From Deltaproteobacteria bacterium (GTDB taxonomy: Bacteria; UBA10199; DSSB01; JACPFA01): DNA of 64,000 bases. A program made the position numbers and the translations under genes. The notes below the pieces were generated by a model, which worked only from the letters and a program-made list of their open reading frames with translations, searched no databases and had not been told where the DNA came from. The DNA lies in the NCBI GenBank assembly GCA_016183235.1, contig JACPFA010000025.1, positions 4,709 to 68,708 of the forward strand, given 5' to 3'. Shown here one piece after another: positions 21,638 to 61,741 of the stretch. The stretch's first letter is position 1. Each line of letters starts with the position of its first letter.

Positions 21638-22711
<1,074 letters not shown>

Positions 22712-22716
22712 ATTTT

Positions 22717-22961
22717 GTAATGCTTCAGTTTTGGGTGGAGAGTGCCTAGATTGTTTCGTCAGCCGTGCTTTTCACGGCGACCCTCTGTCATTGCGAGGCC
22801 AGCCAGCCGAAGCAATCTCTTCTGTTTAACCGGTGAGATTGCTTCGCCCGTTGGGCTCGCAATGACAGAAAGTCCATACCAGCTAGCCCCATGAGGGTCG
22901 CCGCGAGAAACGCGTCTGACGAAATAACCCGAGCGCTCTCCCTACAAGACTGAAGCATTAC
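22717..22961. mobile_element. long hairpin element LHE-F1 (MITE-like, 245 bp) with 8-bp target-site duplication
   Basis: Terminal inverted repeats GTAATGCTTCAGT / ACTGAAGCATTAC. Flanked by direct TAGATTTT (22709-22716 and 22962-22969). Carries a type A doublet at its centre. Confidence 0.8.
22786..22867. repeat. SPE type A doublet nested in the centre of LHE-F1
   Basis: 82 nt, TGTCATTGCGAGGCCAGCCAGCCGAAGCAATCTC..GAGATTGCTTCGCCCGTTGGGCTCGCAATGACA. About 85% identical to the copy at 43318..43399. Confidence 0.9.
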
Positions 22962-23004
22962 TAGATTTTCCCTTTAATCCTTGAAATATGACAGTTAATA
23001 TGTC

Positions 23005-33153: not shown

Positions 33154-33286
33154 TGTCATCCCGAGCTAAGCCTGCCCCGGACTCGATCCGGGGAGGGATC
33201 TTCCATTTCATTCAGATAAACAATCCAAAATAGAAGATTCGGAGTTTACCCTGAGCATTAGCGAAGGGGCACGCCTCAGAATGACA
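33154..33286. repeat. chimeric SPE doublet (type B half + type C half)
   Basis: TGTCATCCCGAGCTAAGCCTGCCCCGGACTCGATCCGGGGAGGGATCTTCC ..loop.. AAGATTCGGAGTTTACCCTGAGCATTAGCGAAGGGGCACGCCTCAGAATGACA. Confidence 0.85.
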
Positions 33287-33289
33287 TTT

Positions 33290-38437: not shown

Positions 38438-38622
38438 TAAGGGTCTGACCGGAAATAAATGTTCATTTTGGCATCTCATCTTGGGGCCATCTTTGACCGA
38501 TCTTCAATCGCAAAATCCTCAAAATAGCCCTGCTATTCCTCCGGTTTTGCTCATTCAGATCGGTCAAATCTGACCCCAATCTGAGCGCCAAAAAAGAACA
38601 TTTATTTCCGGTCAGACCCTAA
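38438..38622. repeat. 185-bp long hairpin element
   Basis: Left arm TAAGGGTCTGACCGGAAATAAATGTTCATTTTGGC..TTTGACCGATCTTCAATCGCAAAATCC is about 85% complementary to the right arm ending ..GAACATTTATTTCCGGTCAGACCCTAA. The right arm encodes the last codons and stop of the rhomboid gene. Confidence 0.85.
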
Positions 38623-43141: not shown

Positions 43142-43211
43142 TGTCATTCAGAGCACAGCAGGGTTCCATGTCATTGCGAGCGAGCCCCATTGGCGAGCGT
43201 GGCAATCTTCC
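43142..43211. repeat. two tandem SPE half-units (truncated C-like unit + type A)
   Basis: TGTCATTCAGAGCACAGCAGGGTTCC then TGTCATTGCGAGCGAGCCCCATTGGCGAGCGTGGCAATCTTCC. Confidence 0.8.
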
Positions 43212-43246
43212 ATTTTATTCTTCAATTCATCTGCAAATAGAGCCAC

Positions 43247-43480
43247 GTCTTTTTGAAAAGTAGAGAGGGCCTATCCTTGTTTGCAAACGCGCACCGTTCG
43301 CCCTACTGTTCGCCATCTGTCATTGCGAGCCCAGCAGGGCGAAGCAATCTCTTCTGTTTAAGCGATGGGATTGCCGCGCCCGTTGGGCTCGCAATGACAG
43401 CATTTGCATTGCCTTCGTGCGGGCTCTCTCCTGGTAATGTTTTCAAACAAGGATAGGCCCTCTCTACTTTTCAAAAAGAC
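43247..43480. repeat. long hairpin element LHE-D1 (234 bp) with a nested type A doublet
   Basis: Outer arms GTCTTTTTGAAAAGTAGAGAGGGCCTATCCTTGTTTG / CAAACAAGGATAGGCCCTCTCTACTTTTCAAAAAGAC. Confidence 0.85.
43318..43399. repeat. SPE type A doublet nested in LHE-D1
   Basis: 82 nt, TGTCATTGCGAGCCCAGCAGGGCGAAGCAATCTC..CCCGTTGGGCTCGCAATGACA. Same length and right half as the copy inside LHE-F1. Confidence 0.9.
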
Positions 43481-43505
43481 TTCTCCGCAAATATTTGAAG
43501 AGATA

Positions 43506-43725
43506 TAAAAAGTTTTACTGAGAGGGGCTAGGGGGTAACTTGAGAGCCTTTTAGCGCAGGAGGTCGGCTGTAGGAGGGCTTAAAAATTTTATTGTTTTTT
43601 TGAATTAGAGGATGACAGAGGAATACTCTAATTCAATTAAAAACAAAAAATTTTTAAGCCCTCCTTAAGCCGACCGGGCGCGGGCTCTCAAGTTACCCCC
43701 TAGCCCCTCTCAGTAAAACTTTTTA
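43506..43725. repeat. long hairpin element LHE-D2 (220 bp)
   Basis: Layers: TAAAAAGTTTTACTGAGAGGGGCTAGGGGGTAACT.. / ..AGTTACCCCCTAGCCCCTCTCAGTAAAACTTTTTA, then GAGAGCCTTTTAGCGCAGGAGGTCGG / CCGACCGGGCGCGGGCTCTC, then an A/T stem. Core GAATTAGAG-GATGACAGAGGAATA-CTCTAATTC. Confidence 0.9.
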
Positions 43726-43823
43726 GGTGAGCGATGTTTAAATGATGTGGGGAATTTATGTTAGCAACCCTTTGAAAGGGTTGTCGATTTGAGTAGATAG
43801 GTCAAAATCGTGCGGTTTTTATT

Positions 43824-46800
43824 ATGACAAATGATCCCATTCGCAATGAGGGGTCCACTAGTTGGTGGGATCCTTTTTATTTTCGTGTTGAGTCAGGGCC
43901 AACTAAATTAGCTGATAAACCTGATCCGAGCCTTGTTCAAGCTTTGCACTTGCGAGGTAGTGAACTGTTGCGTTTTGGCGATGAGCAGCAAAAAACCGTC
44001 GGGGCATCCTTATTACAATGGGTTGAAGCGCAAGGGGGATATGAAGGTGAATTGGCCGCGAGTGAATTATGTAAAGGCGGGGCTGAGAGCAAGCGAGGGT
44101 GTAGCGGGGTTGAGCGAGTGGTGGGGGGAGCTACACAAGTGATGCAGAATTTGGATGTAGGCGATGTGGCATTATTAGCCGGGGTAGGGTTGTTGGGGCA
44201 AGCGACGCGTAATGGGGTCATGTCATGGATGGGGAGACGAGTCGAGAGTTGGTGGAACCGCGGAACGGTGGGAACGGTGCTAGCCCGAGGGGTTGGAGTT
44301 ACGACCGAGGTAGCTGGAATTACGGGAATTGGGGTGGCTGAAAAATTAAAGCATGGAGAATCAGTAAACCTAGGGGACGAAGCTTTACGAACGGGGGTTG
44401 GATGGTTGGGCTTGCGTTTAGGGATGTTGGGGGTGGGTGGTACGGCACAGGCTTTCCATTATGTGGGCAGATATGAGGTGCCGAGGTTAGTTGGAGGGAT
44501 GACATTCACAAGGGTGACGAGTGCTTTCGTCGGAGGTACTGCGGGAATGGTAGGGGCAGAAACGTTATTTGAAAGTTCAGACGGTTTATCGAAACGAGCT
44601 TTGAGTCAAAAAGTTTATCAAGCAGCCACGACACAAGCCAAATTTATGGTGGGGATGCGAGGGATCCACGCCTTATTTCCTAGCGTGGCACATGCCAGCC
44701 AGCGCTTATCTGTTGCGCATGTTTATTTACAACGCGGGATTCAGCCAAAAACAATCACGCCTCCCAATGGGTTTGACCGATTTTTAGGAACCCTTTCTTC
44801 TTATGGTGCCTGGCAGCCCGCTATGGCTTTCCCCGGGCGTGTAGAAGGGCCACTCAAAGGAATGCAATTTGGTGCTTTAGTTGAGCCGGCTTTGGGTGCC
44901 GGTCGTGGTGGTGCTAATCGCCGGGTTAAGGTTGATGAAAGTAGACCGCCGATGGGTGTGGTGCCGTTTTTTGGAACAAGATTTGAAAAAACTCCGACTC
45001 AATTTCAAGTTCCCAATCCTGAAGCAATTGCCAGCTGTTTAGCAGCAGATCCTACTTATGCTGCACAGTTACTCGGTCATTTTGGCCTAACGACCCATGC
45101 CTTAGATATACGTGCCTTTGCCCGTGGTTTTAATCTCGCCCGCCAAAATCCCGAAACCGTGCGCACTACCGCGTGGGATCTTGATGAAGTGCAATTGCAT
45201 TGGGCCCTGACACCGGCGGGCCTACTACGTGGCAACGGTAGAGGACAGGACGCCCGGTATCATCATACAGACCCCAAAGTTTTTGACCCTCAAACTTATC
45301 AGCCCTATCAGCCCCGTCATAAACCCAACCCCCTGCTACGTGCGGTGTATTGGGCTATGGATGGTTTTCGTTTGCGCCAAGAAATGCAGTTGCATCCGGG
45401 GGTGCCGGCCTATGAGTTAGGTTTGCGCCTGGGTCAAGCCGACAATCTTATTTTGTGCACCACCGGGCCCTCAGGTCGTTTTATGATCTTGGCCAATGAA
45501 GTGCCGGCGTTGAAATATATTTATTTTGGTAAAGGCCCTGATGAATTGGTCACCGACCGCGACGTGCGTCATGCACCTAACATTTACACCCGTGAACATT
45601 TGGCTATGGCCATGCAACAGGCAGCTAGCTTGCGTTATCTGGCCGATGAACATCCTCTGGTGGTTGATTATGTTCACCGGGTGCAAAATAATCCTAAAGG
45701 TGGGGCCAAGCTCAAACATCCAGCCTTGCCTTTGTTGCTAGCCAAGGCGGGCATTGCCAAGCGGCCCTTCAATCGTTTGGTCGATGATTCGTCTTCTACT
45801 TATAAAATGTTGGCCGCCTTGCCTGGCTTTACCATCTATCAACCTCCGTCCAACCGTAAAAAGTTTTCCCTTTGGCCCTTGTCGTTCTTAAATCTTACTT
45901 TAGGCACTTCTAGTGGTTATTTAAATCGGATGAGTGGTTATTATGTTGATGATTTGGCCAATGCCATGGGCAATGGTTATCAATCCGTTCGGTTGCCTCG
46001 CACTGCACCGATTCCTGCCGATTATCCTCATCAACGTCTTGCGATCGAACTCCCTTGGTGGCGCCACGACCGCGAATACTTTGGCCCCATGCGCGACATT
46101 AAGGCAGACGCGCGGGCCGTTCGTGCAGCCCATTTGCCGCCGACGTTTAAAAATCGTTATGTAGCCATGCGCCATGGTCTAGCGCGTAGTAACTCGTACG
46201 ATCAGGTGGTGAGTGATCCAGCTCGGGCAAGCCTGCCGAAATGGGGGCTTGAGCCTGAAAGCCGCACTCATATGCGTGAGTCGTTTAACAAATGGTTTGA
46301 TAGCAATCAGCCACAAATTGAAGCGGCCCTGCAAGCCGGCAAGTTGCACATCTTCAGTTCTGATTTTAGCCGTGCCCGTGAAACCGCTGAAATTGCGGCC
46401 GCGGTTATCTATGAAAAAACCGGCAAACATATTGCAATTCAAATCGCTCCCGCTTTACGTGATCGAGGCTTTGGTGGGGCGGAAGGGCAAAGCCCTGCCG
46501 CTACTTACTATAACCAAGTATGGGCAGAAGATCCCAAAAATCCCCATCATAAAATGTTCGGGGCCGAATCGGCTCACGAGGTGCAAGGCCGCTTTGTCAC
46601 ATTCATGAAAGGTTTGGAAAAACGTTTTAGCGATGGTGACCACTTGGTATTACTTTTCTCCCACGGCGATCTGATGCGCATTGGCATGACGGCTGTAAAC
46701 GACATGAACCCTGGTTTACATGTGGAGCGCTTTGGTTATATCTTTAATGGGGACCCCATCGATATGCGACGCCAACCCAATATCGTTCAGGCGCCCACAA

Positions 46801-48098
46801 AATTAAACAATCAATTTGTGGCCGTTCGGCATGGGCAGGCGGTTCCTAATGTTGAGAAGCACTTAGTGTCTTCTCCCAAAATAGGCATGGAACCTGGCCA
46901 GGGGTTAACAGCCACAGGCCGCATACAAACCCGTGAACGCACGCTTGCCTGGTATGATGCCAACCAAGCCCGAATCGATGAAGCCTTAGCCGCCGGCAAA
47001 TTGCATATTTATGCCTCGCCTTTTACCCGTACCACCGAGACTGCCCAATTAGCCGCTGATGTTCTTTATGAAAAAACAGGCAAGCGAGTTCACGTTGTCC
47101 GTGCCGATGAATTGCGCGAACGCTATTTTGGTGAGCGGGATGGTTCAAACGATCCATGGTCAGTTTATCGAGCGGTGTGGGCGGAAGATAAAACCAATCC
47201 TCACCACCATTACCAACAGGCTGAAAACCCTTACCAAGTTCAAGCCCGCTTTTTGGGATTCATGAATGAACTCGACCGTCGTTATGCCGACGGCGATCAC
47301 TTGGTTTTGCTATATTCCCACGGTGATGTCATTCGTTTGAGCGTAGCGGGATTAACGCGTTCTCCAAGCTACGATCCGGCGGTTCATAAAGAGTCTTTTG
47401 GAGATGTTCACCATGTCGAATATCGGGAACTTACTGCTATGGAAAGTCCGCCGGTAGGGAGTCGTTTCCAATATCGATTGATGAATTCTACGGATTATCA
47501 AGAAATGCCTTGGGCGAGTGGAAAGGGTGTAACCCATCAAGTAGCCATCAATCCCCCCAACGCCGATATGAAGGCCAAAGACTTTGCCTGGCGGGTGAGC
47601 ATGGCACCGGTGAAAGACGAAGGGGCGTGGAGCCATTTCACGGGTTATCAGCGAGTGGTGGTTATTACAGAAGGTCCAGGTATTGTTTTAACTCATCATA
47701 TGGATGATGCTTTGCCGGTAACAAATAGGGTGTTGCCATGGCAGGTTTATCGTTTCGATGGTACAGCAACCACTAAGCCTGAATTAATCGGTGGAATCCC
47801 GATCAAAGATTTTAGCGTTATTTACGATCCCACCCGTGCCCGTGTGAACGTGAGCGTATTAGATGGCACGAATGGTAGTGTCGATAAGGGGGCCCTGCGT
47901 GCCTTGACCCAAGGCGACCATTATTATCATTGTGCCCAAGGCCCTTGTACTATTGCTATCAAAGGTGAAGCCGAACATCACTTGAACCAAGGCGACACCT
48001 TTCATTTACAAGTTCAACCGAATAACGCCGTGCAAATTACCGTGAGACCTGGTTCTTCCACTGCTAAGGTAATTAGCACTTCCATATACCCTCGTTAA
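43824..48098 (+). CDS. orphan 1424-aa multidomain protein: Gly-rich N-terminus, unknown core, 2x histidine phosphatase (PGAM-type), HutD-like C-terminus
   Basis: Uninterrupted ORF. RHG..N / R..ETA / SHGD motif sets occur twice (near aa 775-985 and 996-1180). C-terminal MPWASGKGVTHQV..FAWRVSMAPV..WSHFTGYQRVVVI resembles HutD/Ves. Locally GC-rich. Confidence 0.8.
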   Translation: MTNDPIRNEGSTSWWDPFYFRVESGPTKLADKPDPSLVQALHLRGSELLRFGDEQQKTVGASLLQWVEAQGGYEGELAASELCKGGAESKRGCSGVERVVGGATQVMQNLDVGDVALLAGVGLLGQATRNGVMSWMGRRVESWWNRGTVGTVLARGVGVTTEVAGITGIGVAEKLKHGESVNLGDEALRTGVGWLGLRLGMLGVGGTAQAFHYVGRYEVPRLVGGMTFTRVTSAFVGGTAGMVGAETLFESSDGLSKRALSQKVYQAATTQAKFMVGMRGIHALFPSVAHASQRLSVAHVYLQRGIQPKTITPPNGFDRFLGTLSSYGAWQPAMAFPGRVEGPLKGMQFGALVEPALGAGRGGANRRVKVDESRPPMGVVPFFGTRFEKTPTQFQVPNPEAIASCLAADPTYAAQLLGHFGLTTHALDIRAFARGFNLARQNPETVRTTAWDLDEVQLHWALTPAGLLRGNGRGQDARYHHTDPKVFDPQTYQPYQPRHKPNPLLRAVYWAMDGFRLRQEMQLHPGVPAYELGLRLGQADNLILCTTGPSGRFMILANEVPALKYIYFGKGPDELVTDRDVRHAPNIYTREHLAMAMQQAASLRYLADEHPLVVDYVHRVQNNPKGGAKLKHPALPLLLAKAGIAKRPFNRLVDDSSSTYKMLAALPGFTIYQPPSNRKKFSLWPLSFLNLTLGTSSGYLNRMSGYYVDDLANAMGNGYQSVRLPRTAPIPADYPHQRLAIELPWWRHDREYFGPMRDIKADARAVRAAHLPPTFKNRYVAMRHGLARSNSYDQVVSDPARASLPKWGLEPESRTHMRESFNKWFDSNQPQIEAALQAGKLHIFSSDFSRARETAEIAAAVIYEKTGKHIAIQIAPALRDRGFGGAEGQSPAATYYNQVWAEDPKNPHHKMFGAESAHEVQGRFVTFMKGLEKRFSDGDHLVLLFSHGDLMRIGMTAVNDMNPGLHVERFGYIFNGDPIDMRRQPNIVQAPTKLNNQFVAVRHGQAVPNVEKHLVSSPKIGMEPGQGLTATGRIQTRERTLAWYDANQARIDEALAAGKLHIYASPFTRTTETAQLAADVLYEKTGKRVHVVRADELRERYFGERDGSNDPWSVYRAVWAEDKTNPHHHYQQAENPYQVQARFLGFMNELDRRYADGDHLVLLYSHGDVIRLSVAGLTRSPSYDPAVHKESFGDVHHVEYRELTAMESPPVGSRFQYRLMNSTDYQEMPWASGKGVTHQVAINPPNADMKAKDFAWRVSMAPVKDEGAWSHFTGYQRVVVITEGPGIVLTHHMDDALPVTNRVLPWQVYRFDGTATTKPELIGGIPIKDFSVIYDPTRARVNVSVLDGTNGSVDKGALRALTQGDHYYHCAQGPCTIAIKGEAEHHLNQGDTFHLQVQPNNAVQITVRPGSSTAKVISTSIYPR

Positions 48099-48151
48099 AC
48101 TCAACATTACGATAAATCACTTTTCAAAGATTTCACATTATTATAAAGACG

Positions 48152-48640
48152 ATGATTATGAAGAAAGAAAAAATTTTTGAAATTGGTTCGCCAGCCCCTG
48201 CCTTTGAGTTGCCCGATCAAGATGGTAAGCCCATCAAACTTAGCGATCATCGTGGTAAGTGGGTGGTGCTCTATTTTTATCCAAAAGATAATACCCCTGG
48301 TTGCACCATCGAGGCCATTAATTTTACTAAATCGTTAGCTCGATTAACGGACTTAAATGCCGTTGTGTTAGGGGTGAGCGCTGATACTCCCGAATGCCAT
48401 CAAAAATTTATCAAAAAACAAAAGCTTAAAATCAATCTCTTGAGTGATCCTGAACATAAAATGATTGAAAACTATGGCTGCTGGGCCCCCAAAAAATTTC
48501 TGGGCCGAGAATTTTTAGGCATTTTACGCAAAACCTTTCTGATTAACCCCAAAGGCGAGATCGTTTACATTTGGCCTAAGGTCAAGGTGCTAGGTCACGC
48601 CGCCGAAGTCGAAGCCAAATTAAAAGAACTACAAGCTTAA
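48152..48640 (+). CDS. bcp: peroxiredoxin (Bcp type)
   Basis: 162 aa. YFYPKDNTPGCTIEA contains the peroxidatic Cys motif. Confidence 0.9.
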   Translation: MIMKKEKIFEIGSPAPAFELPDQDGKPIKLSDHRGKWVVLYFYPKDNTPGCTIEAINFTKSLARLTDLNAVVLGVSADTPECHQKFIKKQKLKINLLSDPEHKMIENYGCWAPKKFLGREFLGILRKTFLINPKGEIVYIWPKVKVLGHAAEVEAKLKELQA

Positions 48641-48678
48641 ACCCATACTAATTAGTACAGGCCATTTTCACAAATTTC

Positions 48679-49041
48679 TTAGAGAATGTCCCTTAGTGCT
48701 TTACGGAGTGATTTCGTCACCGATTTTCTGTCTTGTGTGGACAAAACGCCTGTTTTGCGAATGATGAAACGATGATCAAGTGTGAACAACTTCATTCGAA
48801 TGACCGAGTCTGCGGAAAGCCCTGCGGAAGCGAGAGCGTTCAATTTTACATCCAGTGGCCATGCTGAATTTTTAGCACTGGTAATCATTGCCATGATACT
48901 GTGTTTTGCTTCGCTATTAAAATGAGATTTGGAAGATAAAACAAGAGCCGGTCTTTTCTTTGTTTGCGAAGAATCTGTGAAGGGGAAGGGGACCACTACC
49001 ACATCAAAGGCTTTATAAGTCACCGTAAGCCTCATCGTCAT
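48679..49041 (-). CDS. mazF: PemK/MazF family toxin
   Basis: 120 aa. DVVVVPFPFTDSSQTKKRPALVLS is the typical MazF/PemK N-terminal core. Overlaps the upstream AbrB-like gene. Confidence 0.8.
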   Translation of the reverse strand: MTMRLTVTYKAFDVVVVPFPFTDSSQTKKRPALVLSSKSHFNSEAKHSIMAMITSAKNSAWPLDVKLNALASAGLSADSVIRMKLFTLDHRFIIRKTGVLSTQDRKSVTKSLRKALRDIL

Positions 49042-49237
49042 TTTTGGAATTCCATTCTTCTAGGGTTCCTTGGAGAGATTTTGCGAATTGGAGATCGAGG
49101 GGGGATGCTTTTTTAAGAGTGACCTTGTCTTTTTGAATTTCAAAAGCAATCACATCTCCCTTTTGTAAACCTAATTTTTCTCTTACAGGGTTAGGGATCG
49201 TAGCCTGGTATTTTGAGGTTAATTTTGCAGCCAACAT
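49013..49237 (-). CDS. mazE: AbrB/MazE family antitoxin
   Basis: 74 aa. KLTSKYQATIPNPVREKLGLQKGDVIAFEIQ is a SpoVT/AbrB looped-hinge pattern. AGGAGG 7 nt upstream of the ATG. Confidence 0.75.
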   Translation of the reverse strand: MLAAKLTSKYQATIPNPVREKLGLQKGDVIAFEIQKDKVTLKKASPLDLQFAKSLQGTLEEWNSKNDDEAYGDL

Positions 49238-49252
49238 CGAAAAGCCTCCTAT

Positions 49253-49288
49253 GGTAATACTGTATTACAGAATTACCTTTTTTGTCAA
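49253..49288 (-). promoter_or_regulatory. candidate mazEF promoter with 25-bp palindromic operator
   Basis: On the minus strand: TTGACA, 16 nt, TAATAC. Palindrome GGTAATTCTGTA-A-TACAGTATTACC (49253-49277 on the plus strand) spans the -10. Confidence 0.35.
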
Positions 49289-49344
49289 TGGGGTACTTTT
49301 AATATGACGTTGGGTTTAGTTGGGCAGGGATGGTGAGTTGCTAA

Positions 49345-49713
49345 TTATTTAGCAATCAGACTCCCCGGAGGAAAAGCATCAATGGCCGTAATATTTTTAA
49401 TATTACCTTTGAACATTCTTTTTTTAAGTTTCCCAACGACCTGAACGGCTAGTGCAGGTTTAAGTTTCTCCGCATAATAAATAAGTGATTTTGAAATTTC
49501 TTGCTCACTATATTTGGCCTCAATAAGTTCTATCACACAGCCCTCTTTTAGAATGGCAAAATCTACTTCCCTGCCTTGAGCTCGAGAGTGAGATTCTCTC
49601 CAGTGAACTGATTTAAAGCGGTCATTTTTGGTTCTTTTCTCATCTATATTGCCAGCAATAGCCAATTCCATAATAAAACGGATGTATACTATCTGTATAC
49701 TTTTTTCCCATAG
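49345..49713 (-). pseudogene. C-terminal remnant of a DUF4143-type AAA ATPase gene
   Basis: ..VHWRESHSRAQGREVDFAILKEGCVIELIEAKYS.. matches the YWR..EVDF..E.K.S tail of DUF4143 proteins (compare 24125..25327). No ATPase half is present upstream. Confidence 0.5.
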
Positions 49714-49946
49714 TTAGAGAATTTAAGCCCCCTCTTTCTCCGAAAAGATAAGCAGCGAAGTACCTAACTGCTATAGAGGGAGCATAAAAATGAATATGTT
49801 GATAAACGTTCATAAGTTGACCTTCAAGGAGCATGGTGATGGGGACCTCAATAGCCCTGTCACTTATGAGTATGTCTATACAGCCTATCTTCCCATCGAA
49901 CAGCCAGCAGAAATTTTTGACTTTTACATTAGTTGAAAGGAATTTC

Positions 49947-51395
49947 ATGATTTCTAAAGTAATTATTCCGTTTACCTTATCATGGGTATTGGTTTTGGTT
50001 GGTTTTTTATTGCCTAATTTAGTTAAGGCCGGTGGTTGCTTTGGTACCGATATTAATGGCACTTGTTTCAAATGGGACACCAGTCAGCCCATTGTCTGGA
50101 ATCCAGACCCGGGTTGTCTTAAATGCGGGTTGGGAAATTTTGATCAAGAATTAGGTGATGCCCAATTGTCCGGAGAAAAAGGTTCGGGTGGTTCTTGTCA
50201 GTTGATAGAAAAAGAAGAAGCAGCAAACACCGATATCGATAACGCCACCGCTCGAGCCATGATTACAGCTGCTTTTCAAAAGTGGATGAGTGTGCCGGGT
50301 GCCAAGCTTATCGTTCAGGAAGGGCCTGCCTTACCCGAAGACGCCAATTTGGCCACCTACACCAATTATTATATTCCCGACAGTAAATATAATCCTAATG
50401 ACCCCGAACACCCTTTGATTCTCTATAATCCCAAACATCCTCTGATCAAGGGTTGTTATGACAGTGATCCGAATACCCCTTGTTATAATCCGGTAATTTT
50501 TGATCCCAATGGCCTTATCATGCAAGATTTGATAGGACCTTGTAATCAATACACCGTTTACGGTCTTGGTGGAATTATGCCTCGGGATGGATTTAAAGAT
50601 CCAATTTTAAAGAAGGGCCAGTTTATCATCAATGCAGCTTGTATGGCCTCATCTACGGTCTTTCCTGGTTGTGAAGACGGTGGGGGTTGCTCTCGTATTT
50701 TAAGCAAGACGGATATCGAAGCGGTGATGGTCCACGAGTTAGGGCATTTTTTAGGAATGGATCATACTCAAGTGGCCCCTGAGAGTGCGTGGCTTTGTAG
50801 TGGGCTACCCAATGGTTGCACGGGTGATCTAAAAGACGACATCCCTACGATGTATGATAGACTTATTCAAAATGGTGGGCAAGAGACCTTACATATCGAC
50901 GATAAGGTGGCCTTTGCAAAATTGTATCCCGACCCTGACCCCGCCAATCAAACCTTTAAGAAGCAGGATTGTACGATCAAGGGGAGTGCATGGCACAATG
51001 GGTCTTATTTAAGGTGTGCGGAGATTTTAGCAGTACCGGTCAGCGGTGCGCTAGACGGTGAAAGCTTTGATTATGCCAATGCAGTCTCGGTTATTTCAGG
51101 GGCTGAAGCACCTAAGATCGACGTTAGTCATCGGGACCAGTGGAATTGCAGTAAGGCAGGGGGCCAATGCAGTAAGTTTGAAATCAGTGGCATTAAAGTG
51201 GGGCAAACGTATCGTCTGCAAATCCATCCCATCTACGATTGGAAGACGTCCATTGAGCCCTGTTACCCAGCCCTGGATAGTCAAGGCCAAGTGATGCACG
51301 AAGTGCCGAACATTCAGCCTAATTTGGACGCCTATGAGTTTACCTGTAATGAAGCTGGAAAGGTTTTGACAGTGGGTTACATTAATGCAAAATAA
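49947..51395 (+). CDS. secreted zinc metalloprotease (metzincin)
   Basis: Start set at ATG 49947 (GAAAGGA upstream) with signal peptide MISKVIIPFTLSWVLVLVGFLLPNLVKA. HELGHFLGMDH zinc motif. Many Cys. Confidence 0.8.
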   Translation: MISKVIIPFTLSWVLVLVGFLLPNLVKAGGCFGTDINGTCFKWDTSQPIVWNPDPGCLKCGLGNFDQELGDAQLSGEKGSGGSCQLIEKEEAANTDIDNATARAMITAAFQKWMSVPGAKLIVQEGPALPEDANLATYTNYYIPDSKYNPNDPEHPLILYNPKHPLIKGCYDSDPNTPCYNPVIFDPNGLIMQDLIGPCNQYTVYGLGGIMPRDGFKDPILKKGQFIINAACMASSTVFPGCEDGGGCSRILSKTDIEAVMVHELGHFLGMDHTQVAPESAWLCSGLPNGCTGDLKDDIPTMYDRLIQNGGQETLHIDDKVAFAKLYPDPDPANQTFKKQDCTIKGSAWHNGSYLRCAEILAVPVSGALDGESFDYANAVSVISGAEAPKIDVSHRDQWNCSKAGGQCSKFEISGIKVGQTYRLQIHPIYDWKTSIEPCYPALDSQGQVMHEVPNIQPNLDAYEFTCNEAGKVLTVGYINAK

Positions 51396-51402
51396 CCAGG
51401 TC

Positions 51403-52365
51403 CTATCTTGGGTGTATTTCGAACAATACTCCGTAACGTAAGCCATGGTTACTCACTGTAATTTTTTTAAATTTTAAGTAACGCATCAATCGGCTTAAAA
51501 TTAATCCGCCAGTTGGCAAAACATCGGCTCGTTTAGGATGCATGCCTGGAAAGCATTTGCGGTCGGCTAACGATAATTTTCGTAGAGCTTCGGTTAATTT
51601 TTCAATCTGTTGTAGCGTTAAAGTTTTGCCATGGATTTTTTTGGGGTCATAAGTTTTCATTTTTTTCAGAACCGCTAACAAGCTAGTTACCGTAGCTGCA
51701 ACCCCGACCCACTTTCTCTTTGCGCGTGTCTGTCTCTGGCGAAAGACCAACGTCATCCCGGGCTTAGCCCCGGGATCCATAATTGATTCGTCAATAAAAT
51801 TTTTTAACTGATTCCATTCTAAATCAGAAATGGGATGACGATGGATGAACTTTTCCGTCAAACTAACGGACCCTATAGGCAGGCTTATTTTTTTTAATTG
51901 CCCATGCCGTTCGCTTACAATCTCAGTTGACCCCCCGCCAATATCGATCATGCCTATCTTTACACCGTGCTTAGCAAAATCTTGCTTGGCACTTAAATAA
52001 GAAAGCCTGGCTTCTTCTTCCCCTGAAATAATTTCAACTGGAATTTTAAGTTCATCAAAAATCTGTTTTGCAAATAGATAGCCATCTTTTGCTTTACGAA
52101 AAGCCGCCGTGCCAACCGCTAAAACCTTATTTACCTGGTATTGATCACAAATTTTTTTATATTTTTTTAAAACCAAAAAAGCCCTAGCTTTGGCTTTGGG
52201 GTCAAAATTTTTTCTTGGTTTTAAATTCTTAGCCAGCCGAGGGATTTCTGCCTGATCGAGCAATACTTTGCATAAACCATTGTTTAAGCGCTGCACGATG
52301 GTTAACAGAACTGTATTCGACCCAATGTCGATAGCAGCAATTTTATTTCTGTTTTTCGGCGGCAT
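51403..52365 (-). CDS. ppx: Ppx/GppA family phosphatase (N-terminal two-domain form)
   Basis: 320 aa with IAAIDIGSNTVLL, MIDIGGGSTE. Contains a 10-codon in-frame SPE type B insert. The start overlaps the tolB 3' end by 23 nt. Confidence 0.85.
   Translation of the reverse strand: MPPKNRNKIAAIDIGSNTVLLTIVQRLNNGLCKVLLDQAEIPRLAKNLKPRKNFDPKAKARAFLVLKKYKKICDQYQVNKVLAVGTAAFRKAKDGYLFAKQIFDELKIPVEIISGEEEARLSYLSAKQDFAKHGVKIGMIDIGGGSTEIVSERHGQLKKISLPIGSVSLTEKFIHRHPISDLEWNQLKNFIDESIMDPGAKPGMTLVFRQRQTRAKRKWVGVAATVTSLLAVLKKMKTYDPKKIHGKTLTLQQIEKLTEALRKLSLADRKCFPGMHPKRADVLPTGGLILSRLMRYLKFKKITVSNHGLRYGVLFEIHPR
51751..51780. repeat. SPE type B half-unit inside the ppx coding sequence (in frame)
   Basis: CGTCATCCCGGGCTTAGCCCCGGGATCCAT, read on the minus strand as MDPGAKPGMT. 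Confidence 0.85.
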
Positions 52366-53614
52366 CGAGCCAATTCGACCAATCTGAATTGATGCAATTA
52401 TTTTTATTTTCGATCACGGTTTGATTATACCCATCCCACATCATCAGCTTCAATTCACTCTTCGCATCACGGTGCACCGTGCTATACACAATGAATCGAC
52501 CATCGGGTGAAAAGGTAGGTGATTCATTACTACCGCCACCTTGAGTTAATTGCTGAAAACCACTGCCGTCGGCATTCATCAGCGCAACATTAAATTGTCC
52601 GCCCACGCGCGTTGAAAAAACCACTTTGTCACTACGTGGTGACCAATCGGGCGAATCATTTTGATAACCAAAATAAGTCAAACGCGTCGTTTCGCCACCT
52701 TGCTTATTGACAGCAAAGAGATGCAAATTGCCGGCCCGCTCCGAGGCAAAGATAAGCCGCTCACCATCGGGCGAAAAAGTGGGAGCAATGTCAACCCCCG
52801 TGGTTTGGGTAATTTGTCTCACTTGATTGCCTTCGGTATCAAACAAATAAAGATCAGGGTCACCCCCCATGCTAGAAGAAACCGCTAGATAATTGCCGTC
52901 GGGAGTAAAAGCTGGGGTGATGTTTAAGGCTTTATTAAAGGTAATGCGTTTGCCTTTACCGCCCTTGATCCCACTAATATAAATTTCAGGAAAATAGCTG
53001 GCATAAGAAGTGTAAGCAATGCGATCTGCAAAGGGTGACCAAGAGGGGGAAATATTATTAACTTTATTTTTGGTGATGGGGGTGATGCCAGTGCCATCAA
53101 CATTCATAATCATGATCTGCCTTTTATTGAGGGGGCCACAGGCCGCAACGATTTTAGTATTGTAAAACCCCCGTTCGCCAGTGAGGGCCAAAAGAATTTC
53201 ATCCATGAAGCGATGAATGGCGACATAAAGGGCCTTCTTTTTCACTTTGTAACGTTTGCCCACTAACATTTTGCCAAGTTGGGGATCGAACAAACGCAAT
53301 TCAACCGTAGATCCACCTTTAACCACGCCGGTAATCAGTCCCCGCGCCCCAATTCCGGTCCATTTTGAAAAATTAATATCTTCAGGTAAATAATGCCCGC
53401 TGTGATCGGTAAAACGTGATCGGTCGATCACTTCAAAATAACCCGCCAGGTTGAGATTTTTTTTCAGCATCTCGGTCAGTTCATGGGCGGTGTCACTCGA
53501 GCCACTTAAGTCAGCCACTGCAATAGGAAAGCGCTGCTCAGGAGTGAATTGATCGATCAAAATATAAATCTCAGCCTTTGCAGGGGTGGCGATTAATAGT
53601 AGTAATAGTGTCAT
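52343..53614 (-). CDS. tolB: Tol-Pal system beta-propeller protein TolB
   Basis: Repeated SPDG../WSP.. propeller blades. Conservative start MTLLLLLIATPAKA at 53614. The alternative in-frame ATG at 53713 (MKNLFRR..) would translate a type A repeat. The ORF track start at 53824 is rejected. Confidence 0.9.
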   Translation of the reverse strand: MTLLLLLIATPAKAEIYILIDQFTPEQRFPIAVADLSGSSDTAHELTEMLKKNLNLAGYFEVIDRSRFTDHSGHYLPEDINFSKWTGIGARGLITGVVKGGSTVELRLFDPQLGKMLVGKRYKVKKKALYVAIHRFMDEILLALTGERGFYNTKIVAACGPLNKRQIMIMNVDGTGITPITKNKVNNISPSWSPFADRIAYTSYASYFPEIYISGIKGGKGKRITFNKALNITPAFTPDGNYLAVSSSMGGDPDLYLFDTEGNQVRQITQTTGVDIAPTFSPDGERLIFASERAGNLHLFAVNKQGGETTRLTYFGYQNDSPDWSPRSDKVVFSTRVGGQFNVALMNADGSGFQQLTQGGGSNESPTFSPDGRFIVYSTVHRDAKSELKLMMWDGYNQTVIENKNNCINSDWSNWLDAAEKQK

Positions 53615-53697
53615 TGCAAAGAAAACGAGATTGCTTCGCAGACGCTCGCAATGACAAGTTGATGTCATTGCGAGACCAGCAGGGCGAGGCAATCTTC
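53610..53697. repeat. SPE type A units (truncated doublet plus half-unit) at the tolB 5' end
   Basis: TGTCATTGCaaagaaaacGAGATTGCTTCGCAGACGCTCGCAATGACA aagttga TGTCATTGCGAGACCAGCAGGGCGAGGCAATCTTC. Confidence 0.85.
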
Positions 53698-53756
53698 TAA
53701 ATAAATTCTTCATAAAAGCTAAAATAGTGATTTTTACATTTAAATCAATCCAAAAT

Positions 53757-53907
53757 GGAAGATTCTTTGTCATCATGGGTCCCCCGGTCAATCCCCCGAT
53801 CAAGTCGGGGGAGGGGGATGACATTCCTCAGAATGAATGAATGAATGGATGCCGGATCAGGTCCGGCATGACGGTATTGCGTCATCCCGGGCCTGACCCG
53901 GGATCCA
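53757..53907. repeat. cluster: B-like half-unit, (GAAT)4 microsatellite, SPE type B doublet
   Basis: GGAAGATTCTTTGTCATCATGGGTCCCCCGG..GGGGGATGACA; GAATGAATGAATGAAT (53831-53846); GGATGCCGGATCAGGTCCGGCATGACGG tattg CGTCATCCCGGGCCTGACCCGGGATCC. Confidence 0.85.
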
Positions 53908-53926
53908 TATAATATGACAGCTATTT

Positions 53927-54685
53927 TTATAATCTCTTTTTAAACGTCACCACAAATGTTTCCGACACTGCCCCAGCCGGTGGTGGCGAAAAAGGATTCG
54001 AGGCTTGAATCGCGCGCATGCAAGCCGCATCAAACGCACCGTTGCCCGAGGTCTTACGAAAGCTAGCCGAGATCAGCGACCCACTTGGGCTTAAGCGAAA
54101 CGTAATCGTTGTACTTAAAACCGTATCGCTTACTTGCGATTGCCAATAAAGATTGCGTTGCACCTTGGCCTTTACCATGGCTCGATATTGCGCAATGGCG
54201 GGGTCATCCGCCAAGATAGGCCCGCCTTCACTTCCACTCGGTAAGCCGGGCCCGGTGTTTTCAACCTTCTCTCTATTTTGTAATTCTTGATTTACTTTAG
54301 ATAAGGCCTCCTGAATATTTTGATTATCAGGTTTTGGTTTTTTTTGAGTAGTTGTTGGGGCGTTGATAGATTTTTTATTCGTGGTGGGTTGGGGCTTATT
54401 ATTAACCACAGGTTTGCTGATAGGTTCTGGTTTTTTTACTTCTTGAATTGGTTTGGGTGTAGGTGCAATCATCGGATGTTCAACCGGGGCGCTGGTGGCC
54501 ACCGGCGAAGGATTTTTTGAAAATCGAATAAAAGTAATTTTGCTGGCGGGGACTTCTTCCTGGCGAAACAGCTCCCCTGCAATGATTGCAAAAATGAACA
54601 TTAGCAGGTGAAAGACCACCGAGATGAGTAAAGACCCTGGCAGCGTAGGTGAGTCTTTAAATTCCTGAACCGCTTTGTAGGACAT
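53927..54685 (-). CDS. tolA: TolA/TonB-family energy transducer
   Basis: N-terminal TM anchor, Pro/Lys-rich spacer (PKPIQEVKKPEPISKP..), C-terminal TonB-like domain. Position between tolR and tolB. Confidence 0.7.
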   Translation of the reverse strand: MSYKAVQEFKDSPTLPGSLLISVVFHLLMFIFAIIAGELFRQEEVPASKITFIRFSKNPSPVATSAPVEHPMIAPTPKPIQEVKKPEPISKPVVNNKPQPTTNKKSINAPTTTQKKPKPDNQNIQEALSKVNQELQNREKVENTGPGLPSGSEGGPILADDPAIAQYRAMVKAKVQRNLYWQSQVSDTVLSTTITFRLSPSGSLISASFRKTSGNGAFDAACMRAIQASNPFSPPPAGAVSETFVVTFKKRL

Positions 54686-54712
54686 GGCTTACAACCCCTT
54701 AAGAATCTTTTT

Positions 54713-55147
54713 TTAAGAGCCTCCTTGGTTTTCAAACTCGGTGTCGAGGCCTACTTTTTCGATCCCTAAATTTTTGCATACCCCCATGACTTTAACAACG
54801 TGCCCATAAGGGACTTGTTTGTCGGCGCGGATAAAGATTTCTTTGCGGGCCGTATCTTTGTAAATAGAGCTCAGTTTGTCGGAAATGTTGACCGTATTAT
54901 AGCTCACCGATTTGTCGTCGTTAATATAAATTTGACCGGCTTGGGTGATGGTTAAAACCGTGTCTTCGGGTTTTTTCTGAGTGGCACTACTACTAGACAC
55001 CTCCGGAATGTCCACTTCAATGCCTTGCTGCAATAGCGGTGCAGCAATCATAAAAATAATTAAAAGCACCAACATAACATCCACCATGGGGGTGACGTTA
55101 ATTTCGGCCAACACCGAACGACCTTGTTTGTGGGAACTAAGCGCCAT
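54713..55147 (-). CDS. tolR: biopolymer transport protein TolR/ExbD
   Basis: 144 aa. EINVTPMVDVMLVLLIIFM is the ExbD/TolR signature. Confidence 0.9.
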   Translation of the reverse strand: MALSSHKQGRSVLAEINVTPMVDVMLVLLIIFMIAAPLLQQGIEVDIPEVSSSSATQKKPEDTVLTITQAGQIYINDDKSVSYNTVNISDKLSSIYKDTARKEIFIRADKQVPYGHVVKVMGVCKNLGIEKVGLDTEFENQGGS

Positions 55148-55155
55148 AAATTTCC

Positions 55156-55878
55156 TTAAAAATATTCGTGTTGAATGCGTCGTGTGAGATCCAACGAAAA
55201 ATCTTCATAATCGCGAGCCAAGGCTTTTATTTTGGTTACGAAATAGTTGTAAAACACAACAGCCGGGATAGCCGCAGCCAGACCCACTGCGGTGGCGATC
55301 AATGCCTCAGCAATATAAGGCCCTACCACTTGAATCGAGCTTGAGCCTGAGCCTTCTTTTAAAACCCAAAAGGCCGTAAGGATACCCCACACCGTGCCAA
55401 ACAAACCAATAAACGGGCAGGCGGATGCCGTGGTGGCTAAAAAGGGAGTGAATTGTTCCAGCCTTCCGGTTTCGTTATCGCTACTTTGTTGGATGCGTTT
55501 TCGCACATGGTCTAAATCTAATTTAGCAGGATAAGTGGGGTCTTTGGCCTTGGCCTGTTTGATTAAAAGAATATCGCGCAGCCCAGAAAGAAAAATTTCG
55601 TAAAGCGGGCTTTCTTCACTACCTTTCCGTTTGGTTAAAATTTCTTCTAGTCGAGGCGCGTTTTCAAAGGTTGCTAAAAATTTCCCCGAGCTGCGGCGAG
55701 CCTTTTTGATTTGAAAAAATTTGTAGAGGATAATCGTCCAAGAAAAAATGGAAAAGAAAAGCAGTATCGCCAAAGTTAGCTGCACAATGGGGTCGCTGCC
55801 CAAGGCTAATTCTAAAATATTGATTTTTTGACCGCGATGGGCCACTTCAGCCTGTAAAAATAATACGCTCCAAAGCAT
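55156..55878 (-). CDS. tolQ: proton channel protein TolQ/ExbB (MotA family)
   Basis: 240 aa with three TM spans. FIGLFGTVWGI and ALIATAVGLAAAIPAVVFYN are canonical. Confidence 0.9.
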   Translation of the reverse strand: MLWSVLFLQAEVAHRGQKINILELALGSDPIVQLTLAILLFFSIFSWTIILYKFFQIKKARRSSGKFLATFENAPRLEEILTKRKGSEESPLYEIFLSGLRDILLIKQAKAKDPTYPAKLDLDHVRKRIQQSSDNETGRLEQFTPFLATTASACPFIGLFGTVWGILTAFWVLKEGSGSSSIQVVGPYIAEALIATAVGLAAAIPAVVFYNYFVTKIKALARDYEDFSLDLTRRIQHEYF

Positions 55879-56130
55879 GGCTAGTTCACTCCTTTTGATA
55901 GATAAACGTTGGGATTGACATGAACGGGCTCAACTCTACTTGCGAATTTTAAAAAAGTCAACCCGGCCCCTTCTGTACAAAATAGACGAACTCCTTGAAA
56001 TTAAATAACTTAACTCTCCATGACCAAGATCAGTAGGGCTTAAAAAAAAGGTTGTTGACAGAACCCCTATAATTACTTAAAAATTTCAGTCGACCGTTTA
56101 CGCGTAACCTATAAAAATCGAGGGTGTCTT

Positions 56131-56535
56131 ATGTGGATTCAAAATGTCATGAATGAAGCTTTGCAACGGGGTGAAAAAATAAAAAACCAAATTGTGCAAG
56201 GTGTTTTGAGTTCAAAGACACTTGAAGAATTGTTATCTAACGAAAAAGTATTGCGTTCGGTGACCAAGGCTTTTTCGACCAAGCAACAATTAGAAAAAAC
56301 GCTGCGCACTAATTTACGCAAGGCGCTTAAGTTTATTGAAATCCCTTCTCGTGAAGATCTTCGTCACATGCAAACCAAAATCTCACAACTAGAAACTGAG
56401 ATGGATGGTATTCATCGCAAAATCATGACCAGCAAACTTCGTCATGAGTCTCCTGTCAAAGCCGCAAAAAAAAAAGTGAGTAGAGTTCTTAAAAGAACCA
56501 CGAAAAAAACTTCTCTGATCAAGCGATCAAAATAA
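56131..56535 (+). CDS. coiled-coil protein, phasin/PHA-granule-associated-like (tentative), Lys-rich tail
   Basis: 134 aa. IPSREDLRHMQTKISQLETEMD resembles the PHA granule protein family motif. Basic C-terminus KAAKKKVSRVLKRTTKK. Confidence 0.45.
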   Translation: MWIQNVMNEALQRGEKIKNQIVQGVLSSKTLEELLSNEKVLRSVTKAFSTKQQLEKTLRTNLRKALKFIEIPSREDLRHMQTKISQLETEMDGIHRKIMTSKLRHESPVKAAKKKVSRVLKRTTKKTSLIKRSK

Positions 56536-56539
56536 CCCG

Positions 56540-57358: not shown

Positions 57359-57360
57359 TA

Positions 57361-57579
57361 TTCCGTAATGCCTCAGTTTTAGGGGTTTAGCTTTCCGAAA
57401 CCCTTTGCGCGAGAACGACGAGTCATGAGCATTTAAAAAACATATAGTTTGTAGAAGTTAGGGTATGACCAGAGGGAATACACTAACTTCTAAACAAACT
57501 AATGTTTTTTAAGTGCGAATACGAGGAGTGAAGCGCGGGTTGAGGAAAGCTAAACCCCTAAAACTGAGGCATTACGGAA
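57361..57579. repeat. long hairpin element LHE-F2 (219 bp)
   Basis: Arms TTCCGTAATGCCTCAGTTTTAGGGGTTTAGCTTTCC / GGAAAGCTAAACCCCTAAAACTGAGGCATTACGGAA. Core GAAGTTAG-GGTATGACCAGAGGGAATACA-CTAACTTC (loop 57462-57482). Confidence 0.9.
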
Positions 57580-61171: not shown

Positions 61172-61205
61172 TAATGTCATTCAGAAATTTGTAAATTGCC
61201 GCACC

Positions 61206-61423
61206 TAAAAAGTTTTAGTGAAGCGGGCTAAGGGTGTTGTCAAGAACCCGCACCCGTAAAGCCTACTCGGCTCAAAAAATTATTTATTTTTATTGAATTA
61301 GAGTATTCCTCTGTCATCCTCTAATTCAAAAAAATAATATAATTTTTTGAACCTCCTACGGCTTTACTCCTGTGCTAAAAGGTTCTCGACAACACCCTTA
61401 GCCCGCTTCACTAAAACTTTTTA
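61206..61423. repeat. long hairpin element LHE-D3 (218 bp; D2 family, opposite orientation)
   Basis: Arms TAAAAAGTTTTAGTGAAGCGGGCTAAGGGTGTTGTC / GACAACACCCTTAGCCCGCTTCACTAAAACTTTTTA. Core loop TATTCCTCTGTCATC (61304-61318) is the reverse complement of the D2 loop. Confidence 0.9.
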
Positions 61424-61448
61424 TATCTCTGCAAATATTTCAGAAGAA

Positions 61449-61675
61449 GTCTTTTCGAAGCGGGGATAGGCAAATAGAGAGCCTTTTAGCGCAGGAGGTC
61501 GGATCCTTCGCCAAGCCTCAGGACAGGCTCCGGAGGGCTCAAAAATTTTATTGTTTTTTTGAATTAGAGGATGACGAAGGAATACTCTAATTCAACCAAA
61601 AACAAAAAATTTTTTAGCCCGAGTAGGCCGACCGGGCGCGGGCTCTCAATTTGCCTATCCCCGCTTCGAAAAGAC
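61449..61675. repeat. long hairpin element LHE-D4 (227 bp; D1-type outer arms, D2-type interior)
   Basis: Arms GTCTTTTCGAAGCGGGGATAGGCAAAT / ATTTGCCTATCCCCGCTTCGAAAAGAC. Interior GAGAGCCTTTTAGCGCAGGAGGTCGG .. CCGACCGGGCGCGGGCTCTC. Core loop GATGACGAAGGAATA (61570-61584). Confidence 0.9.
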
Positions 61676-61741
61676 GTGGAGATAATTGCAGATTTTTTAG
61701 CCTCAAGTTGTCTTGCCCATATTTTCATGCCATAATTATTT

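Follow-up and report, generated by a model that had tools for sequence, protein, structure and literature searches.

Long intergenic hairpins in the core chromosome of an uncultured Bdellovibrionota-related bacterium: a nested set of palindromic repeats, probably non-autonomous mobile DNA

What are the long hairpins that lie between the genes in a 64-kb stretch of contig JACPFA010000025.1, from an uncultured groundwater bacterium of a Bdellovibrionota-related lineage? Six of them (in order of position F1, D1, D2, F2, D3 and D4) had been described in an original prediction as one family with a shared apical loop, covarying stems and a conserved asymmetric internal region, for which three options were offered: a recognition hairpin for a transposase or nuclease, a structured RNA, or a replication or recombination signal. 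The window, by which we mean this whole 64-kb stretch, is core chromosome, with dnaG, the his operon, icd, mdh, sucCD, ndk, suf, tol-pal and metH, and it also holds several toxin-antitoxin pairs. We compared these 64 kb with about 100 kb of contigs from relatives, whose loci are designated by L numbers below. The elements are probably non-autonomous, multi-copy palindromic DNA repeats built from nested modules, of the same kind as miniature inverted-repeat transposable elements (MITEs), bacterial interspersed mosaic elements (BIMEs) and the doublets of repetitive extragenic palindromic (REP) units known as REPINs.

The six long palindromes are real. All their arm pairs were recovered mechanically where they had been placed (Table 1), and they fold far more stably than dinucleotide shuffles, with z-scores from -14 to -21: -157 kcal/mol (z = -20.9) for D2, -140 kcal/mol (z = -15.9) for D1, -131 kcal/mol (z = -18.4) for F2, -146 kcal/mol (z = -14.5) for F1, and z = -21.4 for the 526-nt stretch of D3 and D4 together. 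The idea of one family of six held only in part. D2, D3, D4 and F2 share a core that we call X, whereas a covariance model of X scored D1 at 26.5 bits (minus strand, middle layer only) and did not find F1. In D1 the middle layer is X-like in minus orientation and the apex has been swapped for a doublet of REP-like units of a family named Y (43317-43399); F1 carries such a Y-REP doublet at 22785-22867 and no X core, and has in common with F2 only about 20 terminal bases. The supposed family of six is a combinatorial set of modules, not six copies of one element. Even among the X-bearing hairpins the interior is variable: F2 has a variant core (X2), and its arms retain the asymmetry CGAAAC/GTTGAG, and in D4 an extra insert of about 25 nt, ATCCTTCGCCAAGCCTCAGGACAGGCTCC, with a small hairpin of its own, splits the 5′ middle layer of X at 61503-61527 and is missing from the otherwise near-identical L086 copy.

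X, an oriented hairpin, is about 135 nt long, with TTT(T)AGCGC-AGGAGG-..GTAG-GA-GGGCT on its 5′ side, in which GTAG is not conserved across X subfamilies, and AGCCC-GA-CTAGGCCGACC-GG-GCGC-GG on its 3′ side. The middle layer is GC-rich and consists of a TTT(T) bulge, a GCGC helix, an AGGA/GG internal loop and tandem G.A; above it stand an A/T stem, then a G.A mismatch, two to four closing pairs and the loop GAC(C)AGAGG(G)A. That four copies share an apical loop was borne out, since the pattern TTAGRGKATGAC..AGG.AATACNCTAA occurs exactly four times in the window (plus strand in D2, F2 and D4, minus strand in D3) with none expected by chance; what had been quoted as the loop is partly paired, the true loop being the one just given, closed by the pairs and the G.A mismatch. 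The asymmetric region, CC-TTTTAGCGC-AGGAGG.. opposite ..CCGACC-GG-GCGC-GG-GC, is likewise kept in these four copies and in 14 further ones, and the stems quoted as diverging below the loop while staying complementary do so.

These 18 copies were used for the covariance model and the covariation statistics. Both sides had changed in 28 of 43 pairs, and 96.5% of the cells were paired; none of 500 shuffles reached the observed level, and slid controls gave 5-11 pairs. One-sided changes of the G.U type were rare, with 9 cells versus 123 double changes, and at the apex of the L088 copy a T>C change is accompanied by a compensatory A>G. The window copies of X scored 140-163 bits on one strand and 40-62 on the other, which shows that the module is oriented. 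The centre and the extreme ends of the elements are conserved best, and the arms between them are hypervariable. X was found inside at least six different arm families and, at L095, without long arms; there the non-mirrored motifs (the loop, AGGAGG and GGCCGACCGGGC) survive though nearly every stem pair differs. A search of the window, the locus and the 17 contigs on which the loop pattern was found gave no Rfam 15 family at gathering score for X, the sole matches at that score being three tRNAs in the window; by E-value there were only generic miRNA-type hairpins, far under threshold.

The outer arms differ between copies at 25-40% of positions, yet within each copy they are 97-100% complementary, with 0-1 mismatches. 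When family B arms are compared (the terminal families are defined below), 10-17 of 43 positions differ with both sides changed and 0-2 with one side only; family A arms show 7 mirrored differences versus 1-2 unmirrored, and D2 differs from the B hairpin at the orthologous L088 site, where the flanking genes are 89% identical, by 11 mirrored changes and 1 unmirrored. Only X-bearing copies combine hypervariability with perfect mirroring of the arms. The most economical explanation is copying of one arm from the other at the DNA level, because independent mutation and selection would leave many intermediates; template switching within a palindrome is an established mechanism for quasipalindromes. 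Compensated hairpins have already been described in REPINs (PMC3116915). Covariation here is not evidence for an RNA, since compensation is just as perfect in the outer arms, outside X, and the original argument from covariation is therefore weaker than it looks. Its companion argument, that a non-mirrored loop and bulges imply selection, is still valid: the loop, the G.A mismatch, the bulges and the 3′ motif are the parts that indicate selection, because they outlast a process that otherwise symmetrises the sequence. A 16-nt match to the D2 arm at 16782-16805 was discarded as a coincidence, lying as it does inside the conserved enoyl-CoA hydratase motif VVILRGAGASF.

The elements as a whole measure 78-245 nt, are almost wholly self-paired, contain no open reading frame (ORF) and are nested to as many as four levels. 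There are at least three families of terminal repeats, A, B and C, each enclosing interiors that vary (a short loop, X, a Y doublet and others); the commonest long inner module is X, and the alternatives are a 7-nt loop and the Y-REP doublet seen in D1 and F1. The short A and B hairpins are 78 nt long, with the 7-nt loop TTTGCTC and a conserved asymmetry of their own, CGAAACCCC/GGGGTTGAG, and some A and B hairpins at composites hold unrelated inserts. We rejected, in its simple form, the notion that an X-bearing A hairpin is a short A hairpin with X in its loop, as only the outer 16 nt or so of the arms are shared; the 5′ TTT(A)GC of the inserts does resemble the short-hairpin loop.

A and B units are joined head to head, about an 18-bp palindrome, into a composite of about 500 bp, whose order is a REP unit, the linker CAATTCATCTGCAAAT.GAGTCAC, an A hairpin, the central palindrome TCTGCAAATATTTGCAGA(GATA), a B hairpin and the linker GGTGCGGCAATTT. 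This order was seen again at eight or more unrelated loci on metagenome contigs, in the manner of a BIME-like mosaic, and in every complete composite both X cores face outwards from the centre. D1-D2 and D3-D4 are inverted copies of the composite (202 nt, 80%) and bracket 17.5 kb, from 43726 to 61205. A REP unit plus linker also stands ahead of A-type hairpins in L082, L083, L086, L091, L100 and L104, and the same central spacer separates hairpins in L083, L086, L087, L088, L090, L092, L097, L100 and L104. Three other, weak likenesses were not used as evidence, each agreeing at only 7-10 bases: flankB GGTGCG.(C)AAT with the XerC arm of dif, the minus-strand loop GAGTATTCC with TAGTATTAC, the nonamer of CRESS (circular Rep-encoding single-stranded DNA) viruses, and the central palindrome with the integration host factor (IHF) consensus.

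The elements also occur well beyond the window. The loop pattern matched 17 metagenome contigs, 16 of them from one metagenome, and many of these contigs end inside the element; X has a density of four copies in the 64 kb, and short A-type hairpins were found at seven or more further places. All copies are intergenic, and the genes next to 20 copies are housekeeping genes unrelated to one another, among them fur, era, gltA, icd, mgtE and genes for ABC and MFS transporters. In F1, F2, L082, L084 and L089, among many, the element starts 0-7 nt from a stop codon; of the solitary copies, F2 is sense and L084, L089 and L082 are antisense to the gene ending beside them, while D1-D2, L085 and L088 are placed between divergent gene starts. 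The sole X copy from a second metagenome, L095:760-1195, lacks long outer arms; the spacer around it, GC-rich and 430 nt long, separates a DUF1343-type gene from a DUF971 gene and contains several small GC hairpins. Rfam gave no match in this spacer, which speaks against a larger known RNA there, RNase P for example.

Outside this setting the searches were negative. A DNA pattern scan had no match in species-representative genomes, a collection that does not include the source species, and neither the loop nor the 3′ motif had any on viral contigs. At metH loci, with about 15 kb covered per genome, the X covariance model found nothing in 35 more distant metagenome-assembled genomes (MAGs), mostly Bdellovibrionota, nor in L101 (70% MetH identity). 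The window MetH has its best identity, 65-70%, to MAGs of Bdellovibrionota and 'Deltaproteobacteria', and for the window Mdh the figure is 80-82%; the true Mdh sequence led only to two 1-kb contigs, from other sequencing runs of the same organism, both of which break inside F1. Promoter and terminator signals near the elements were at chance level only.

Orthologous intergenic regions of close relatives (89-94% identity), the comparison suggested with the original prediction, revealed both presence/absence and remodelling. In L100 (MetH 94% identical, DNA about 90-92%) the spacer between the racemase gene and metH is 68 nt long and F2 is missing, only CGT..TTA, the hairpin's outermost bases, standing in place of its 211 nt. 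Between metH and the ORF at 61742 the window has 536 nt, which hold the X-bearing D3 and D4, and L104 (89% identical) has 226 nt, made up of a REP unit, flankA and a short A hairpin together with the central palindrome and half of a B arm. The arrangement in L104 is reversed relative to the window, and L100 and L103 have the L104 form. At L102:5808-5880 an A hairpin has lost X almost wholly, down to CGCGCCCGGTCGGCC between the arms. Beside the MiaB-like gene L088 has an A hairpin with X; D1, which occupies this place in the window, contains a Y doublet, and its arms are different ones. What relatives gain, lose or replace is the hairpin as a whole. Composites also mark points of rearrangement: the synteny of L088 with the window stops exactly at the composite, and the metH-side composite is reversed in L100 and L104. 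L083:74-278 has two arms from different subfamilies and L097:1-110 an apex inverted relative to the middle layer, which suggests recombination between or within copies, both variants lying near contig ends where they could be assembly chimeras.

Signs of insertion are fewer. F1 is flanked by a perfect 8-bp direct repeat, TAGATTTT, at 22709-22716 (which includes the mdh stop codon) and 22962-22969. A seventh long palindrome in the window, absent from the earlier list, lies at 38440-38620; it measures 177-181 bp, has the termini GGGTCTGACCGGAAATAAATGTTC and belongs to an unrelated family. It is a clean insertion relative to L088, where the empty site reads GGC-CTAA-ATG and of which CTAA/TAA is duplicated in the window. 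It looks like a classical MITE with an IS5-like target, and from the clean insertion it follows that palindromic MITEs move in this lineage.

Dispersal, unrelated neighbours, turnover, one 8-bp duplication and a deletion derivative thus support one of the three original options, recognition by a transposase or nuclease and hence mobile DNA, and structured RNA is not supported. The conserved inner hairpin X is more likely to be the part recognised by a mobilising enzyme than an RNA gene. We propose that an enzyme whose gene lies elsewhere in the genome would mobilise the elements in trans, recognising the folded single strand of X together with the family-specific termini. The parts of X that are not mirrored (the loop, the G.A mismatch, the AGGA/GG internal loop, the TTT bulge and GGCCGACCGGGC) would be cis features selected for mobilisation. 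The arms would be kept complementary by arm-to-arm copying, which could occur while an asymmetric single-stranded intermediate is turned into a new copy, or in situ through template switching inside the palindrome. Effects on the host would be secondary; termination or stabilisation of transcripts is plausible from the analogy with BIME, ERIC and Correia elements, given how frequently the elements abut stop codons.

Several observations weigh against this reading. That no transposase is encoded in the window, as originally noted, holds after a Pfam scan of its approximately 58 ORFs; nor did these or 20 ORFs of the metagenome contigs contain transposase, integrase or HUH domains, and six-frame translations were likewise negative in a crude scan for the HUH-Y1 motif. 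No gene for RAYT (REP-associated tyrosine transposase), an HUH-Y1 protein whose gene usually has its REP units on either side, was found in the window or on the contigs, and there was no autonomous element with the same termini among the fetched loci of relatives. The F2 site in L100 looks like a near-precise loss of the whole hairpin and not like a site that was never filled; it demonstrates loss, not insertion. Target-site duplication is not general: the repeats flanking F2 and L085 agree at about 5 of 8 positions and L084 has none, and the constant 9-mer TCTGCAAAT beside A and B units may belong to the repeat rather than being a duplication. The metagenome copies of X were fetched with the loop pattern, so that the conservation of the loop among them is partly ascertained. 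X is also far bigger and more elaborate than known transposase-recognition hairpins, such as those of REP (about 35 nt) and IS608 (about 20 nt), and its plus strand, with a better RNA fold, more G.U pairs and an exposed GGA/AGGAGG, would suit an RNA equally.

X could be a structured non-coding RNA, whether as a family of small RNA genes or as a module that the repeats carry, the flanking repeats being merely its vehicle. It might bind a protein or act as a sponge, with GGA/AGGAGG motifs exposed in the apical and internal loops, or be a substrate of RNase III. X is strongly oriented, and its plus strand folds 8-18 kcal/mol better than the minus strand in all 17 copies. G.U pairs number 28 on the plus strand versus 5 on the minus, which reduce to some 5-6 independent events versus about 3 A.C events; unpaired purine-rich motifs (AGGAGG, GUAGGAGG and AGAGGAA) are conserved, tandem and single G.A mismatches are retained, 28 of 43 pairs covary, and in L095 the loops persist although the stems change. 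The outer arms without X are equally compensated, however, so that the covariation needs no RNA, and the one-sided G.U intermediates counted above are rare. X lies in either orientation relative to adjacent genes, the two X of a composite invariably run in opposite directions, conservation of the loci is lacking between relatives 89-94% identical, and neither an Rfam family at gathering score nor a conserved promoter or terminator above chance was found. We consider an RNA quite improbable.

The same genomic positions could be read as those of structural or regulatory DNA maintained by the host, in the manner of Escherichia coli BIMEs or Neisseria Correia elements. The composites might then act as bidirectional transcription stops, as stabilisers of mRNA 3′ ends, as RNase III sites or, at the 18-bp palindrome, as sites for a nucleoid protein, and their mobility would be historical. 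The consistently intergenic location, often 0-7 nt from a stop codon, the A-tract/stem/T-tract layout of B-type hairpins (TAAAAAG...CTTTTTA), as in bidirectional intrinsic terminators, and the mosaic of REP units, fixed linkers and central palindrome would all fit such a role. But no terminator is called for at D1-D2, L085 and L088, which are flanked by divergent gene starts, and A-type termini lack a T-tract. Close relatives also differ in what they carry at orthologous sites, contrary to a site-specific role, and we regard this explanation as unlikely. Recombination, the remaining option, would make the hairpins substrates for a site-specific recombinase, folded sites like integron attC or the attP of CTX phage, or inversion sites, with the composites bounding an invertible or mobile 17.5-kb segment. 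The inverted D1-D2 and D3-D4 do flank 43726-61205, synteny with L088 breaks at the composite, the metH composite is reversed in L100 and L104, and conserved unpaired bases in a long imperfect hairpin recall attC sites. Yet the 17.5-kb segment consists of core genes (tol-pal, metH) that keep the same order in L100 and in the more distant L101; there is no integrase, invertase or Xer-type gene nearby and no cassette array, and dozens of dispersed copies do not fit a dedicated site. We give this explanation very little credence.

Table 1. Hairpins, linkers, spacers and terminal-repeat families in the 64-kb window
Feature	Position	Strand	Sequence	Remarks
F1 with flanking direct repeats	22709..22969	.		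Hairpin 22717-22961; C-type termini
Y-type REP unit	43168..43211	+	TGTCATTGCGAG...GGCAATCTTCC	Precedes the D1-D2 composite
flankA linker	43223..43246	+	CAATTCATCTGCAAATAGAGCCAC	Contains the 9-mer TCTGCAAAT; conserved beside A-type hairpins at 10 loci
D1, A-type hairpin	43247..43480	.	Termini GTCTTTTTGAAAAG	Arms 42 nt, 98% complementary
Central spacer	43481..43505	.	TTCTCCGCAAATATTTGAAGAGATA	Degenerate copy of palindrome TCTGCAAATATTTGCAGA
D2, B-type hairpin	43506..43725	+	Termini TAAAAAGTTTTACTGA	Arms 43/43 complementary; X core 43549-43682, plus orientation; 163 bits on plus strand, 62 on minus
flankB linker	43726..43745	+	GGTGAGCGATGTTTAAATGA	Degenerate relative of GGTGCGGCAATTT
F2, C-type hairpin	57365..57575	+	Termini GTAATGCCTCAGTTTTAGGGG	211 nt; X2 variant core 57404-57536, plus orientation; 143 bits
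flankB linker, reverse complement	61184..61205	-	GGTGCGGCAATTTACAAATTTC	Adjoins truncated REP
D3, B-type hairpin	61206..61423	-		X core 61249-61380, minus orientation; 159 bits on minus strand
Central spacer	61424..61448	.	TATCTCTGCAAATATTTCAGAAGAA	
D4, A-type hairpin	61449..61675	+		X core 61484-61640, plus orientation; 140 bits
flankA linker	61676..61693	-	GTGGAGATAATTGCAGAT	
Terminal-repeat family A			GTCTTTTCGAAGCGGG	D1, D4
Terminal-repeat family B			TAAAAAGTTTTACTGAAG / TAAAAAGTTTTACTGA	D2, D3
Terminal-repeat family C			GTAATGCCTCAGTTTT / GTAATGCYTCAGTTTT	F1, F2

How do elements of this kind compare with known ones? REPINs are intergenic, high-copy, non-autonomous hairpins whose mobilising gene, RAYT, is single-copy and located elsewhere (PMC3116915, PMC8266576). 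The present elements are like them in forming long single-strand hairpins with conserved ends, a variable compensated stem and higher-order clusters. X itself differs: its 135 nt form one oriented hairpin in which the apical loop and several asymmetric internal loops are conserved, and it has a single unique loop rather than two inverted short REP units, so that it is not a REPIN doublet, whereas the family Y doublets in D1 and F1 do have that feature. The BIMEs of E. coli are mosaics of palindromic units of about 35 nt with fixed linker motifs, BIME-1 having an IHF site; IHF, gyrase and Pol I are the proteins associated with BIMEs. Here too palindromic units alternate in orientation, are joined by short specific linkers and stand two head to head about a central motif, but the units are 78-245 nt and are nested rather than only juxtaposed. 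ERIC elements (enterobacterial repetitive intergenic consensus sequences, also called intergenic repeat units, IRU) and Correia elements (Correia repeat enclosed elements, CREE, or Neisseria miniature insertion sequences, NEMIS) are 100-250-bp imperfect palindromes with terminal inverted repeats. They resemble the present ones in having size variants through indels at fixed internal positions, in presence/absence between strains and in being often co-transcribed with their neighbours; unlike in them, the inner module here is common to several unrelated terminal families and the outer arms are near-perfect and mirrored, and there is no TA duplication as in Correia elements.

Members of the IS66 family have inverted repeats of 20-30 bp that start with GTAAGCG and make 8-bp duplications (PMC11946415). 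The C-type hairpins alone are similar, their termini starting with 5′-GTAA and F1 having its 8-bp direct repeat. Against this, only 4-6 terminal bases agree (GTAATGC versus GTAAGCG), one duplication is clean, no IS66 transposase was seen on the DNA compared, and the palindrome extends over the whole length; that C-type hairpins may be an IS66-derived MITE is only a lead, drawn from one clean case. The attC sites of integrons and the ends of IS200/IS605 elements are folded single-strand substrates with functionally important unpaired bases. The present hairpins share with them the conservation of unpaired bases and strand polarity while the stem varies, and differ in that there is no integrase, cassette array or TnpA, in that X is much longer, and in that copies are single or paired and dispersed. 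What sets the elements apart from all of these is the combination of a large, oriented, asymmetric core found across several terminal families, up to four levels of nesting, mirrored hypervariable arms and a fixed head-to-head composite.

A more speculative version of the mobile-DNA reading, which we think rather doubtful, would treat the X hairpins as hairpin-templated mobile elements of a new type. In this scheme a single strand lacking symmetry, made up of one arm and the oriented core, would be excised and would enter other palindromes, with a preference for their apex or flank; fold-back copying would then restore the second arm. The nesting, the arms that are hypervariable yet perfect in X-bearing copies alone, and the presence of one core in unrelated terminal families would be explained, and the strictly conserved non-mirrored motifs would serve an undescribed enzyme for recognition and priming; in a variant, X would additionally be expressed as an RNA cofactor of the enzyme.

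If the elements are indeed mobile DNA, this lineage carries an unusually elaborate population of nested palindromic repeats that share one oriented 135-nt module, and the cis features (loop, G.A mismatch and bulges) would offer a concrete handle for seeking the mobilising enzyme. That DNA palindromes can mimic RNA-style covariation calls for caution in searches for non-coding RNAs. Repeats that mark synteny breaks and intergenic remodelling between relatives about 90% identical also matter for assembly, binning and the evolution of genome structure.

Other repeats are plentiful in the window. The REP-like family Y (TGTCATTGCGAG...GAAGCAATC) has 17 units in the 64 kb versus 0.12 expected (for example at 4097-4173, 15006-15075, 53645-53674 and 43168-43211). 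These units often form inverted, REPIN-like doublets 58-70 nt apart; two such are nested in D1 and F1, and units also adjoin flankA linkers. A second REP-like family, Z (CGTCATCCCGGG...CCCGGGATCC), has about 11 units, also in inverted pairs (1832-1888, 17454-17502, 51751-51794, 53859-53915, 60682-60739 and 33154-33194).

A 1424-aa ORF (43824-48098) has only its C-terminal 425 residues assigned, to histidine phosphatase and HutD, about 1000 N-terminal residues being without a Pfam match; the gene is absent at the corresponding position of L088. A 68-nt direct repeat (90%) at 10235-10302 and 11708-11775 flanks a HEPN/nucleotidyltransferase toxin-antitoxin pair and a tRNA-Arg gene, and may delimit a small inserted module. 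Two units of a perfect 30-nt direct repeat, GATAATTTATCGGAATAACGATAAATTATC, each itself a hairpin, lie at 25296-25357, with an AAA_14/DUF4143 ATPase gene (minus strand) on one side and sucC (plus strand) on the other; they may represent an operator or two terminators. Finally, a 79-nt inverted repeat whose arms, at 21635-21713 and 33211-33289, are 89% complementary and 11.5 kb apart, both intergenic and beside REP units, represents another dispersed family.

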